Below, piece after piece: positions 5,708 through 9,488 of a stretch of DNA of 44,708 nt (the first letter of the stretch is position 1; each line of letters begins with the position of its first letter). The translations under genes and the position numbers were made by a program. The stretch is from a virus. Lineage: Duplodnaviria; Heunggongvirae; Uroviricota; Caudoviricetes. The notes under the pieces were generated by a model. The model was not told where the DNA came from. It did no database searches and worked only from the letters and a program-made list of their open reading frames with translations. The stretch lies in IMG/VR virus record IMGVR_UViG_2541047944_000003, positions 1 through 44,708 of that record; one strand, written 5' to 3'.

Positions 5708-6289
5708 ATGAACAACTCATGGTGGCAGGAACTAATGCATTTTTTCCTGCAAGGAATGACACTTAAACAGTTGATTCATATGCTAATCATCCTGATCATA
5801 TTGATTATTGTTATGCCGGTAAGCGTAAAAGAATGGATAAACCTGCATAATCCAGAAATCCTTCCTCATTACTGGATGTATTACATCCTGTTGTTTTGCG
5901 TTAGCTATGTGCTTAACGGCGTTGTTAATTCCGCTTATCACGCTGTGACTGAAAGAATTGAGGTATTCGCTGCTCAGAAGCGCAAATCTAAAGAAGAAAA
6001 ATATGTGCAAGATTTGTTTGATTCGTTAACTCTTGGAGAAAGAGCGTATTTGGCATTCGCTGTAGCCGCTAATAACCAGCTACAAACGGAAAAGGGCGCT
6101 CATGAATCAATTTCATTGCTCAAAAAAGGACTCCTCGTTCGAAGGCCTCCTGCTGTTGGATATCCTGATACCGACCGTTTCGTTATCCCTGAAAGCTATA
6201 GACATGAGTGCTACATTAGGTTTGCCGGGAAGGCAGACAGCCTTATGGATGAACTTATCGCTCAGGATAAGCATGGCAAAAACAAGTAA
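5708..6289 (+). CDS. sieB: superinfection exclusion protein B-like membrane protein
   Basis: 193-aa protein with two strongly hydrophobic helices; rightward gene embedded in the leftward early operon between N and cIII, as sieB is in lambda. Confidence 0.55.
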   Translation: MNNSWWQELMHFFLQGMTLKQLIHMLIILIILIIVMPVSVKEWINLHNPEILPHYWMYYILLFCVSYVLNGVVNSAYHAVTERIEVFAAQKRKSKEEKYVQDLFDSLTLGERAYLAFAVAANNQLQTEKGAHESISLLKKGLLVRRPPAVGYPDTDRFVIPESYRHECYIRFAGKADSLMDELIAQDKHGKNK

Positions 6290-6305
6290 TTAGCAAATGA
6301 ATTTA

Positions 6306-6578
6306 TCATCTCGCCGTCAGTTGTTTTGATTTCCGGTAGCCTGCCGCGTAAAGAGCTACGTTCGGAAGACAAGTTGAACCTTCATATTTTCTGGTCAACG
6401 TTGTCAGAGTTATCACTTCTGCTCTCATTGCTGGTTTGCGCTTGCATTGCAAGACCACTCGTGAAGGGGTTGGCCTGTGTAGCTTGTCGGAGCTGATCGC
6501 CTCCTGACTTTGCAGATTTGCGCGACGAGCTCTACGGCGAGAAGCTGCGGTGCCTTTAAATTCTGTTTTTCTGGACAT
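6306..6578 (-). CDS. N: N-like transcription antitermination protein
   Basis: Arginine-rich motif TAASRRRARRANLQ near the N-terminus; GGAGGA RBS before ATG at 6578; sits between nutL and the early-left genes. Confidence 0.6.
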   Translation of the reverse strand: MSRKTEFKGTAASRRRARRANLQSQEAISSDKLHRPTPSRVVLQCKRKPAMRAEVITLTTLTRKYEGSTCLPNVALYAAGYRKSKQLTAR

Positions 6579-6676
6579 GGATTCCTCCCGAATAAACTTT
6601 GGCGATGCAATCTCGAAGCTCCTCCTGAGACGGTTGCTTCGGCATTGCATCCCACAGCTTATGTGGTTGGGTGATC

Positions 6677-6722
6677 TGGCTTTTCAGCCACGTAGTCGAG
6701 AGTCGACGTTGTTTAAAGAGCC
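6677..6722 (-). promoter_or_regulatory. nutL candidate (boxA GCTCTTTAAACAAC, boxB hairpin GGC-TGAAAA-GCC)
   Basis: On the minus strand; boxA and the TGAAAA-loop hairpin recur with the same spacing at nutR. Confidence 0.55.
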
Positions 6723-6769
6723 TGCCAGTCTGCTCCATTTGGCTTCCAGCGTCCTGCTGACGGTTAAAT

Positions 6770-6788
6770 AGTACGATATGTACTTTAC
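6770..6788. promoter_or_regulatory. OL operator site (GTAAAGTACATATCGTACT on minus strand)
   Basis: 16 of 19 positions identical to a site in OR at 9084-9102; contains inverted AGTAC half-sites. Confidence 0.5.
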
Positions 6789-6983
6789 GGGATCAATACA
6801 ATTTGTTGTAATTTGGCGTGGTTTTTTATAACGCTTTGTATTTAATAGTGTTGTTTTTTAGCGTGGATGTATTGCCTCGGCGATGTAAGGAGAGATCAGA
6901 ATTGCGTGGTTTAGTGGGTTGCATCTATTTATTTTTCAATAAATATAATTGGTTATGTGTTTTTAGGTGGGCGAACGTGAGGC

Positions 6984-7009
6984 AAAGAAAACCCGGCGCT
7001 GAGGCCGGG
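6984..7009 (-). terminator. intrinsic terminator after the cI-operon cargo genes
   Basis: Hairpin CCCGGC-gctgag-GCCGGG followed on the minus strand by a T-run, immediately after the stop at 7015. Confidence 0.6.
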
Positions 7010-7014
7010 TTGTA

Positions 7015-7767
7015 TTATGCTGCAAGTCTCTTAACCCAAGTCTCTCTTTTGGAGAATGGTAGAACTTGGCTTGATTCATGGAAGAGTAAGGAGAGTTGTT
7101 GCATTTGATCACCAATTGCTTCGCTGTCTATAACAACAAATCTGTTGTTATACTCCTCACTTGAAGCTTTAAGATCAATTAGTTTCCCAAGCAATGAGTA
7201 AGCACTATTCCAGCTTCCTCCGTGTTTCACGCTTGATGTAAAAACGTATTTAGGTATGTCGGTTTTTATTGTTACAGGGACGGTAATTTGATGTCCACTC
7301 AAGCCATATACGTTTTCACGAAGAGAAAGTGCGTCTCTAAGCTCTGTGTGATATAGATAATCAATAACCATACTTTCAAACTTTTCAGCTTGAACTGGCT
7401 GATACCAGTCTAACGACAAAGTTGATGCGAGTATACCAGCTCTAATTATGTTCGATGTAATCGCACCGACATCCTTTTCTGTTGCCCAAGCAATGATTTC
7501 TCCTCGAGCATTGAGTTCTGCGCCTTCTTTAAGCAGTAATTGTCGTATCTCATCAAGTCGTTTTTTGGTAAGCGAGATCCCTCTTGCCTCCATATTCATT
7601 AAGGCATCGCATCTGTCACTAACTAAATACCTACCATTGACTTCACGGATAAAGGCACCGACATGCTCTCCATCATCACAGTAAGTGAATGGACTGATAA
7701 TTCTCAAGGTCTTGCCTATTGGATGGCATTCGAAACCTAGTTGTGAGATCACTGTTGAGCACATCAT
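7015..7767 (-). CDS. hypothetical protein (250 aa), immunity-region cargo
   Basis: ORF downstream of cI, 4-nt overlap with upstream ORF, AT-rich codon usage unlike backbone; no recognisable motif. Confidence 0.6.
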   Translation of the reverse strand: MMCSTVISQLGFECHPIGKTLRIISPFTYCDDGEHVGAFIREVNGRYLVSDRCDALMNMEARGISLTKKRLDEIRQLLLKEGAELNARGEIIAWATEKDVGAITSNIIRAGILASTLSLDWYQPVQAEKFESMVIDYLYHTELRDALSLRENVYGLSGHQITVPVTIKTDIPKYVFTSSVKHGGSWNSAYSLLGKLIDLKASSEEYNNRFVVIDSEAIGDQMQQLSLLFHESSQVLPFSKRETWVKRLAA

Positions 7768-8321
7768 ATTCCAAACCCCATTTGCCCCGACTCATCTTCA
7801 AGCGGTAAAGGTATTCTCCCAGAGTAAGTTATGTTCAGATGTTTACAGAAGTAATTCCAATACCCTACCAGGTCATCTGGGTTTATGTCATCTTCGATTG
7901 GAAACGCTATTCTATCACTATAGTATCCAGCTTCTTCATAGTATACATGGTAGTGAGCACCGTAAATGATATCTTGGTACTTCGGATGATCGACCTTGTA
8001 ACTATTCGTGTGTTTGTCAAAGTGATAGGTATCTACCGCGAAAACCCTCTTGTTATGATAGAAAGCAATAATATTTATTTTAGGGTAAGAAATCGGGTCA
8101 TCAGGTTCTGAATCCTGATCTGGTTTCCATTTCAGTTCAAACTTTAGCCCTTGTATAGGTATACAATCCTCATCCAAGGGGATGATATGGGCTTGTAGCC
8201 ACATATCAGAGCGACTTGGTTTCTGTTTCCATTTAACGCCAGAAAAGTTAACTATTTTTTTACAATAAAGTACTTTATCAACTTCTACTTGGCTTGGCTG
8301 ATAATCATCTATTTTTGCCAA
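7764..8321 (-). CDS. hypothetical Tyr/His/Asp-rich protein (185 aa), immunity-region cargo
   Basis: ORF 40 bp downstream of cI stop, co-oriented with cI; no recognisable motif. Confidence 0.6.
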   Translation of the reverse strand: MAKIDDYQPSQVEVDKVLYCKKIVNFSGVKWKQKPSRSDMWLQAHIIPLDEDCIPIQGLKFELKWKPDQDSEPDDPISYPKINIIAFYHNKRVFAVDTYHFDKHTNSYKVDHPKYQDIIYGAHYHVYYEEAGYYSDRIAFPIEDDINPDDLVGYWNYFCKHLNITYSGRIPLPLEDESGQMGFGI

Positions 8322-8360: not shown

Positions 8361-9020
8361 TCACCCAAACGTCTCTTCAGGCCATTGGCTGGCGATAACT
8401 TTCCCCACAACGGAACAACTCTCATTGCATGGGATCATTGGGTATTGTGGGTTTAGTGGCTGTAGAAACACCTGACCGCTATCCCTGATCAGTTTCTTGA
8501 AGGTAAATTCATCACCACCAAGTCTGGCTATGCAGAAATCGCCGGGCTCAACAGCTTGCTCAGGGTCAACCAGAATTAACATCCCGTCAGGAAAGCTGGG
8601 TTTGGAACCTGTTGGTGCGGTCATTGAGTTACCTTCAACCTCAAGCCAGAATGCAGAGTCACTGGCTTTTTTGGTTGTGCTTACCAATCTCTCCGCATCG
8701 CCTTTGGTAAAGGTTCTGAGTTCTGGAGAGAACATCCCAGCCTGAACATGAGAAAAAACAGGGTACTCATATTGTTTTTTAACTGGGGCCGATGAGTATT
8801 CGCCAACAGGTGAAAATGTCCCGTCGTGGTTGAATGATATGTTATCAATACCAAGGTATTTAAACACCACACCAATATCACTAAGAGATGGATGACGAGA
8901 TCCGCGCAACCAGTGTCCAATCCCACCCTGCGTCATACCTAGCTCTTCGGCTAACTTCTCTTGAGTTATGCCGAGCTCTTTCATTCTGGATCTAGCCAGT
9001 TCATACCATTTCATTTTCAT
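8361..9020 (-). CDS. cI: CI-type prophage repressor (HTH DNA-binding domain plus S24 peptidase domain)
   Basis: C-terminal domain matches lambda CI as remembered ([19 protein letters not shown]...[12 protein letters not shown]); N-terminal HTH differs; TAAGGA RBS before ATG at 9020. Confidence 0.9.
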
Positions 9021-9131
9021 GTCCTTATTATTACGCTCTGTACTGGAACCATCCATGCACAATGTGTATTTTTATTTGTATTCGTAAAGTACATATTGTA
9101 TTTTTTTATTCGTGTTTACTATGGAGGGCAT
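9021..9131. promoter_or_regulatory. OR region with divergent promoters for cI and cro
   Basis: AT-rich 111-bp divergent intergenic region containing operator-like site at 9084-9102. Confidence 0.6.
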
Positions 9132-9347
9132 ATGAGCAACCTACGAAAATATCGAGAGTCACTGAATATCTCTCAAACAACACTTGCTAAGGCAGTTGGA
9201 TGCACACAGGGAGCTATCGGACATTGGGAATCTGGTCGTCGCTTCCCAGACCTTAAAACATGCCGTGCTCTTGTTGCGTGCCTAAACAAGTTAGGCGCAA
9301 AAGTCAGTCTTGATGACGTGTTCCCGCCGGAACACAAAGCCGCTTAA
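9132..9347 (+). CDS. cro: Cro-like HTH repressor (71 aa)
   Basis: HTH motif ISQTTLAKAVGCTQGAIGHWESG; GGAGGG RBS; divergent from cI. Confidence 0.75.
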   Translation: MSNLRKYRESLNISQTTLAKAVGCTQGAIGHWESGRRFPDLKTCRALVACLNKLGAKVSLDDVFPPEHKAA

Positions 9348-9357
9348 TAAGCGGATC

Positions 9358-9403
9358 CGCTCTTTGTAACAACGGACATTCGTCCTACGTCGCTGAAAAG
9401 CGA
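9358..9403 (+). promoter_or_regulatory. nutR candidate (boxA CGCTCTTTGTAACAAC, boxB hairpin TCGC-TGAAAA-GCGA)
   Basis: Immediately downstream of cro; same boxA core and TGAAAA loop as nutL. Confidence 0.55.
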
Positions 9404-9488
9404 GTTCCAAGATATCTGACCAACTAAGGCCATATGCGTTTCCACGCATACCTTTCAACTAACTATTCACTATTGGAAATCTTAAGAA

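Follow-up and report, generated by a model that had tools for sequence, protein, structure and literature searches.

What does the inverted repeat in the leader of the N transcript do, and is it related to the processing hairpin of lambda? The window, by which we mean the whole 44,708-nt stretch of viral DNA that was analyzed, contains the immunity-left region of a lambdoid phage, and the initial annotation had pointed to a nested stem-loop between nutL and the N start codon as a possible analog of the lambda N-leader hairpin. An RNase III-type element in the N leader has been known in lambda since the 1980s. We put at roughly two in three the probability that the hairpin is a minimal, VT2-Sakai-type member of the lambda-type RNase III-processed N-leader hairpins controlling N translation, a reading that draws on comparison of sequences and predicted folds.

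The setting is that of a typical immunity region. On the minus strand, a cI-type repressor is followed by two accessory genes, a terminator, and then pL, nutL and N (Table 1). The 671 bases around the hairpin share 99.3% identity with Escherichia phages ev207, ev017 and PhiR57_1 and 94.4% identity with VT2-Sakai and many other Stx-converting phages. A consensus promoter scan did not call pL, and the stretch of VT2-Sakai (AP000422) that aligns with it is annotated as 'putative major leftward promoter'. The alignment of GTCAGCAGGACGC with the lambda pL +1 sequence ATCAGCAGGACGC provisionally places the start of the pL transcript at G6761. The boxB elements of nutL and nutR have an identical loop on stems that differ by a compensatory change. 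Along the pL transcript, boxB is followed by the hairpin, the N Shine-Dalgarno sequence and the N start codon in turn, so the placement between nutL and N first proposed for the element stands.

Table 1. Features of the N leader region in the window, with the stems of the leaders compared (stem sequences as RNA, 5' base and stem strand … 3' stem strand and base)
Feature	Coordinates	Strand	Remarks
N antiterminator gene	6306..6578	-	90 aa, AUG 6578; VT2-Sakai annotates the same 273-nt CDS
N Shine-Dalgarno	6583..6589	-	GGGAGGA; 5 nt before the AUG, 2 nt past the hairpin base
Full N-leader hairpin	6592..6662	-	71 nt; folds and covariation across related leaders
Lower stem	6662-6652 with 6602-6592	-	includes the G6655×A6599 mismatch
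Bulge	G6603	-	
Upper stem	6651-6644 with 6611-6604	-	
2×2 internal loop	6643-6642 / 6613-6612	-	
Inner stem	6641-6636 with 6619-6614	-	6 bp
Apical loop	6635-6620	-	16 nt
Putative RNase III scissile steps	6600..6653	-	G6652^G6651 (5' strand), C6601^A6600 (3' strand)
nutL	6677..6721	-	boxA, spacer dyad, boxB; aligned stretch in VT2-Sakai is 'putative N-utilization leftward'
nutL boxB	6690-6677	-	UGGCUGAAAAGCCA
nutL spacer dyad	6707-6695	-	GUCGA-CUC-UCGAC; between boxA and boxB
nutL boxA	6721-6712	-	GCUCUUUAAA
pL promoter	6768..6796	-	-35 TTGATC 6796-6791, 17-nt spacer, -10 TACTAT 6773-6768
Terminator downstream of cI operon	7011-6990	-	terminator scan
Accessory gene	7015-7767	-	Pfam match, see text
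Accessory gene	7764-8321	-	Pfam match, see text
cI-type repressor	8361-9062	-	
nutR	9358-9403		spacer dyad GGAC-AUUC-GUCC 9374-9385
nutR boxB	9390-9403		UCGCUGAAAAGCGA
Window stem		-	CUGUGG GAUGCAAU … AUUGCAUC G CCAAAG
Lambda stem	+83-88 (CUUUGG), +196-201 (CCAAAG)		CUUUGG GGUGUGUG … CACACACC A195 CCAAAG; AUG +223
Lambda variant stem			UGUGUGUG … CACACACA
933W-type stem			CUUUGG GGUGUGGUG … CACCACACC A CCAAAG
MG40-type stem			CUUUGG GGUGAAUGCAG … CUGUAUUCACC A CCAAAG
P22 stem			GUUUGG ACUGGCG … CGCCAGU A CCAAAG
L174-type stem			GAAAGCG … CGCUUUC
L175-type stem			GAUGCGAUG … CAUCGCAUC
L176-type stem			GAUUGCUG … CAGCAAUC
L279-type stem			GAUUGGAUG … CAUCCAAUC

The hairpin is larger than the element first noticed, which corresponds to its upper part only. 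All four words quoted in the initial annotation are present on the plus strand, with GATGCAAT at 6604-6611, CGAAGC at 6614-6619 and GCTTCG at 6636-6641, but ATTGCATC lies at 6644-6651 rather than 6654-6661, ten bases to the left of the position first given, and the nested element measures 48 nt (6604-6651, upper and inner stems plus loop) instead of about 58 nt. Its two arms (6604-6619 and 6636-6651) are 16 nt each, 88% complementary and 16 nt apart, and in the minus-strand RNA they read 5' GAUGCAAU GC CGAAGC, the loop AACCGUCUCAGGAGGA, then GCUUCG AG AUUGCAUC 3'. Pairing continues below the upper stem, where UGG (6654-6652) pairs with CCA (6602-6600) across the bulged G6603 and, past the G×A mismatch, AUAAGCU (6662-6656) pairs with AGUUUAU (6598-6592). 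In the complete 71-nt structure, 24 base pairs are interrupted by a single G×A mismatch, a bulged G and a 2×2 internal loop.

Structure prediction with free-energy estimates bears out the claim of a stable element. The 75-nt segment 6664-6590 has a predicted fold of -33.4 kcal/mol (z = -6.1), and the shorter segment 6661-6600, also as minus-strand RNA, one of -26.4 kcal/mol (z = -3.3); as none of 200 shuffles folds as well as the latter, the stem-loop is more than chance. Within the full 183-nt leader, the upper and inner stems pair with a probability of about 1.0 and the lower stem with one of 0.83-0.86. Rfam covariance models gave no match at 6590-6664 at E <= 10, nor did they match the leaders of lambda, 933W and MG40, an absence that is uninformative because the known lambda element is itself not in Rfam.

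An inverted repeat this close to a gene might also be incidental to coding, with the region specifying an N-terminal extension of N, and an in-frame ATG at 6650 does open 24 stop-free codons that would yield a 114-aa protein as in AP005153 (345 nt). We consider this barely credible and rejected it, as the 90-aa form fills the Pfam family and neither the upstream frame nor its start codon is conserved. N_peptide (PF25694) spans N residues 1-90 with E = 3e-32, and homologues begin at the same methionine (MSRKTEFKG, MTRRTQFKG and MTRRTAFNG). The strong GGGAGGA stands before AUG 6578 and has no counterpart before 6650, and the position of the Shine-Dalgarno sequence is conserved in all related leaders. 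These leaders mostly have either no in-frame upstream ATG or one followed by stops; a 1-nt loop deletion in one variant (L014) shifts the upstream frame, POCJ13 has GTG in place of ATG at the position of 6650, and substitutions keep pairing rather than codons. The window N has 40% identity to 933W N and a C-terminal motif in common with P22 gp24.

Several database records nevertheless start N inside the 5' strand of the hairpin. They include AP005153 (an Stx1 phage; L002 1811-2155, 114 aa), Salmonella phage MG40 (L085 547-1011, 155 aa) and the lambda RefSeq entry NC_001416 (L087 38-439, 133 aa), and the 114-, 133- and 155-aa forms look like start-codon misannotations.

Among close relatives, the leader varies little. 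From nutL to the AUG, that of VT2-Sakai is identical except for one base beside the start codon. Among IMG/VR loci with the same N, the 80 closest contain 17 variants of the last 102 nt, and together with 64 phage records they have near-identical leaders with wobble-type variation only. Two substitutions recur in the stem, A6660->G and C6636->U, and give G·U and U·G wobbles in the minus-strand RNA; other recurrent changes fall mostly in the apical loop, the bulge and the internal loops, A6613->G adds a pair, and two singletons among the window-type variants disrupt one. A subtype at 90% identity (Shigella phage POCJ13 and phiSTEC1589-Stx1c) keeps the hairpin with one wobble change and carries a disruptive G6653->C that breaks one of two otherwise near-invariant G-C pairs, and therefore constraint on this site may be relaxed in the subfamily. 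A search of genome contigs with N returned four loci. Informative covariation came only from leaders of more distant N types, not from these close relatives.

We therefore compared the leaders of lambda, 933W, Salmonella phage MG40 and P22, together with IMG/VR loci carrying relatives of 933W-, MG40- and lambda-type N. Their common layout runs from boxB through YUUUGG, the 5' strand of a variable stem, an apical module, the 3' strand of that stem and one bulged purine to CCAAAG, which is followed by about 10-15 nt, GGAG(G) and the AUG. The variable stem is wholly different in sequence between leader types and its pairing is always kept (Table 1). Even the base can be compensated, as in a lambda-N subtype where CUUUGG/CCAAAG has become CUUUGA/UCAAAG, and below the base the window has AUAAG/UUUAU where the 933W type has GUGAA/UUCAU, which includes a G-C to A-U double change. 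The spacing between the two anchors is 54-55 nt in the window type, the shortest among the surveyed types, and 65-223 nt in the others.

The extent of covariation was estimated from a gapless alignment of 40 distinct rows, many of them related, in which the 21-nt 5' arm and the 22-nt 3' arm at the two anchors were connected through an artificial GAAA linker. MFE folds served to find the 5' anchor, manual placement at the usual anchor span of the family was used for three rows, and two rows that have no bulge (L231 and L237) were left out. In this alignment, which leans somewhat toward the structure because of the MFE-fold anchoring and the linker, a 19-pair helix with a 1-nt 3' bulge has standard pairs in 94.5% of 760 cells, compared with 36-45% in a control in which the 3' partners were slid by 1-3 columns. 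Changes on both sides occur at 9 of the 19 pairs, in 110 cells, and the covariation score of 0.46 was reached by none of 500 column shuffles. G·U pairs are frequent (columns 3/45, 7/41 and 6/42). On the opposite strand they would turn into A·C, and it is therefore the pL-strand RNA, not the DNA, that is under constraint.

This strand specificity bears on a further explanation, in which the repeat either acts before N as an intrinsic terminator or as an attenuator, or is a DNA palindrome, for example one that binds a protein or takes part in recombination. In its favor, the leader hairpin is strong and the inverted repeat folds on the other strand as well (-29.7 kcal/mol). The stem, however, is followed by UCGGGAGG, which has no U-tract, and a terminator scan of 6200-7100 returned only the terminator of the cI operon at 7011-6990 and a plus-strand match at 6695-6707, with none at the hairpin, so a terminator is excluded. 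The strand-specific G·U pairs and the conserved single-strand bulge speak for pL-strand RNA over a DNA element, and taken as a whole this explanation has next to no probability.

The closest known counterpart is the lambda N-leader stem itself, the subject of Steege et al. (1987, J Biol Chem), Kameyama et al. (1991, Mol Microbiol) and Wilson et al. (1997, Genes Dev; 2002, EMBO J). On the pL transcript, the two occupy the same place, past nutL boxB and immediately ahead of the N Shine-Dalgarno sequence, from which they are equally distant, with a base that ends about 18-21 nt before the AUG, and they share the 3' base CCAAAG, the GG/CC step and the single bulged purine on the 3' strand. The window hairpin differs in its length (71 nt versus about 120 nt), in its top (a 6-bp stem with a 16-nt loop, where lambda has a multi-branched domain), in its 5' base (CUGUGG with the G×A mismatch versus CUUUGG), and in an upper stem of unrelated sequence (GAUGCAAU versus GGUGUGUG); RNase III cleavage has been demonstrated for lambda only. 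Because the base of the stem aligns with that of lambda, and compensatory changes link it with the lambda, 933W, MG40-type and P22-type leaders around a core that fits RNase III preferences, the relationship suggested by the initial annotation appears to go beyond analogy.

The leaders of the 933W/H-19B type, the MG40 type and P22 (gene 24) agree with the window in their conserved flanks, bulge and register; they differ in that their anchors stand 65-223 nt apart and CCAAAG occurs in a further, upstream copy, which the window does not have. Franklin reportedly noted in 1985 that the N leaders of lambda, 21 and P22 share a conserved form and not a sequence. The upstream copy (CCAAAG-UGAR-CUUUGG) can pair with the 5' base strand and is seen near 441-460 of L086, in L085, in L307 and in many of L088-L226. 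The resulting mini-hairpin and the long stem are mutually exclusive, and lambda has CAAAGC…GCUUUG in the same place; judged from the sequences, the mini-hairpin could be a co-transcriptional folding intermediate or a switch. In the window, only a weak CCAC…GUGG alternative pairing is found (6666-6652).

Does the conserved part of the helix resemble a processing site? The lambda site presumably lies in the base of the stem beside the N ribosome-binding site, with cuts that we take to be 88^89 and 197^198. On the lambda sequence, such cuts fall at CUUUGG^GGUG and CC^AAAG, bracket the pairs G87-C197 and G88-C196, and leave the expected 2-nt 3' overhang. Carried over to the window by homology, they would correspond to the putative scissile steps of Table 1, between which lie the pairs G6653-C6601 and G6652-C6602, with U6654-A6600 on the flank and U6656-A6598 and U6649-A6606 at the fourth positions. 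The equivalent columns are the least variable of the alignment: 12/36 and 13/35 are G-C in 38 and 40 of the 40 rows, 11/37 is U-A in all 40, and 9/39 and 16/31, which are never G-C, each have A-U or U-A in 39 rows and an unpaired cell in the remaining one. The near-invariant core thus consists of two G-C pairs next to a U-A pair, with A-U or U-A four steps off.

Rules for RNase III targets in vivo are available from Altuvia et al. (2018), who found that in about 90% of targets the two positions flanked by the cuts are paired, mostly as G-C or C-G, that the surroundings of the cuts follow a WSSW pattern, that D/D' strongly favors A-U or U-A, with G-C there being disruptive to binding, and that the enzyme's binding valley holds about 22 bp. 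In a qualitative comparison, the invariant core fits these published preferences. The window departs from the leader consensus in having CUGUGG instead of CUUUGG, which places the G×A mismatch two layers off the putative cut. With 24 pairs in about 27 layers, the helix offers some 10-11 stacked layers on each side of the putative cuts, and so the 71-nt hairpin is about the minimum that would fill the RNase III binding site. A double cut, if placed as proposed, would free a 51-nt hairpin (6651-6601) and leave the N mRNA with a 22-nt leader. Our literature search found no paper on RNase III and the N leaders of Stx-type phages.

Another possibility is that the 5' strand belongs to the nut site, as a boxC-like part that helps assemble the antitermination complex, for example through a contact with NusA, and has no part in controlling N translation. 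In lambda, we take the equivalent strand GGUGUGUG to be the boxC of nutL. A published account gives boxC as a part of nut, boxC comes after the nut-like site in rrn operons, and nutR of the window is likewise trailed by a small hairpin (9433-9450). What makes this possibility a very slim one is that the upper stem is not conserved in sequence and covaries freely (GAUGCAAU, GGUGAAUG, GAAAGCG, GAUUGCUG and ACUGGCG), which favors a helix over a sequence-specific protein site, and that the boxC of rrn operons is dispensable for antitermination. In the rrn leader (boxB-boxA-boxC), too, a site that loads Nus factors is followed by a strand that forms one side of an RNase III helix, although that helix encloses 16S rRNA over a distance of about 1.7 kb and functions in rRNA maturation, whereas the window has a local mRNA-leader hairpin. 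Because the boxC of rrn operons is one strand of an RNase III helix, the boxC view converges on the RNase III reading that we prefer.

If the window hairpin is an RNase III-processed control element, it may work as follows. Transcription from pL would begin near 6761 and yield nutL and then the 71-nt hairpin, whose base lies 2 nt before the N Shine-Dalgarno sequence. Intact, the hairpin would occupy the landing zone of the ribosome and hold N translation down, and it would also hold nutL, plus whatever N-Nus complex is bound there, near the start of N, which would lower translation further. Host RNase III may then bind the helix of about 22 layers and cut both strands at the GG/CC step, approximately at G6652^G6651 and C6601^A6600. 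The cut would take off nutL and the hairpin and leave the N mRNA with a short, unstructured leader that is better translated, so that N synthesis would track the activity of host RNase III.

Published work on lambda is in line with this scheme. N mRNA is counted among the transcripts that RNase III regulates positively, with reference to Kameyama et al. (1991), and repression of N translation by N and Nus factors at nutL, with a highly structured leader in between, is described with reference to Wilson et al. (1997, 2002). In the window, the base of the hairpin is at -14 from the AUG, within the region covered by the 30S subunit. The MFE model has CC..CC (6670-6665) pairing weakly with the G's of the Shine-Dalgarno sequence, whose pairing is about 0.5 in the leader and 0.71 in the 3' fragment, the fragment folds being marginal (-6 to -8 kcal/mol); the 3' fragments do not come out clearly more accessible, and the calculations therefore lend direct occlusion little support. 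The proposed translational role would draw mainly on homology to lambda, together with the geometry of nutL, as formation of the hairpin leaves only about 17 unpaired nt between boxB (6677) and the Shine-Dalgarno sequence (6589).

That same geometry would serve a purely structural element that is never cut, one that packs the leader so that nutL-bound N-Nus adjoins the N ribosome-binding site or that binds RNase III without cleavage. The published view is that structure between nutL and the Shine-Dalgarno sequence may compact the RNA loop enough for N-mediated repression. In the regulation of lambda N mRNA, the rnc70 allele, whose product binds and is defective in cleavage, shows dominance over wild type, and the POCJ13 subtype has a broken G-C pair in the core. 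We regard an uncut role as unlikely, though less so than the other alternatives, as the invariant core matches the RNase III cleavage motif and not a generic stem, and RNase III processing of the homologous lambda stem is established (Steege et al., 1987; Kameyama et al., 1991). The structural role is compatible with the RNase III reading, since both have been proposed for lambda.

The apical modules, 31-200 nt long, are entirely different between phages on flanks that are fixed, and may for this reason be interchangeable cassettes, each serving its own function. Such cassettes could act, for example, as trans-acting phage small RNAs or as ribosome or 16S decoys, instead of being structural filler. 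We think this reading very unlikely; for the window, it would mean that the apical module is freed by the double cut as a discrete small RNA, the 51-nt 6651-6601 with AGGAGGA in its loop. This Shine-Dalgarno-like motif (6626-6620, minus strand) is exposed in the apical loop and mostly kept in window-type variants. It was rejected as a general feature because the apical modules of the other types of leader show no enrichment for GGAG/GAGG. Three leaders (L204, L205 and L208) have a 115-nt apical insert with GAUGGUUCGACUCCAUC about 40 nt upstream of the 3' CCAAAG that resembles a tRNA T-arm; a tRNA in this insert was also considered and rejected, as the L204 type carries GGTTCGACTCC and yet ARAGORN detects no tRNA.

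We found no description of the VT2-Sakai-type leader hairpin in the literature or annotation consulted, and that it is an ordinary regulatory feature of its phage group is well supported. After infection or induction, N is the first regulator to be produced; in VT2-Sakai and the related Stx-converting phages with the same leader, its cascade runs on to Q and the expression of toxin. Should RNase III gate N as in lambda, the physiology of the host would influence prophage induction by way of a 71-nt element. The combination of a conserved base, a covarying stem and a free apical module could seed an RNA family model, as Rfam has none for the N-leader element, and the window version, being the shortest surveyed, could be a natural minimal substrate for studying N control.

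Smaller structures accompany the nut sites. Both nutL and nutR contain a small dyad within the stretch that separates boxA from boxB, similar to the small hairpin in the nut-site spacer of H-19B (Neely and Friedman 2000), which reportedly was called the 'reducer'. Although that of nutL belongs to the same leader, such spacer hairpins lie inside nut and are distinct from the hairpin at 6662-6592. Two hairpins have been described for H-19B nutR, and in the window the hairpin UAUGCGU-UUCC-ACGCAUA (9433-9450, plus strand) stands about 30 nt past nutR boxB, while the palindrome CCGCUUAAUAAGCGG (9340-9354, plus strand) precedes nutR directly after the cro stop codon.

The neighboring genes also merit brief mention. 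The two accessory genes between cI and pL overlap and occupy the position of lambda rexA/rexB; that at 7015-7767 matches DUF1828, and that at 7764-8321 has a weak match to DUF6978 below the Pfam cutoff. They may be exclusion or defense genes expressed in the lysogen. Downstream of N and convergent with it, as in lambda and P22, lies a homologue of the superinfection-exclusion protein SieB (5708-6289, plus strand; Pfam E = 2.5e-22). Two short contigs (JAJXBQ010000280.1 and JAJXBQ010000254.1) carry an E. coli-phage N region with 98% protein identity and belong to a metagenome-assembled genome labeled Segatella copri, in which this region is probably a binning contaminant.
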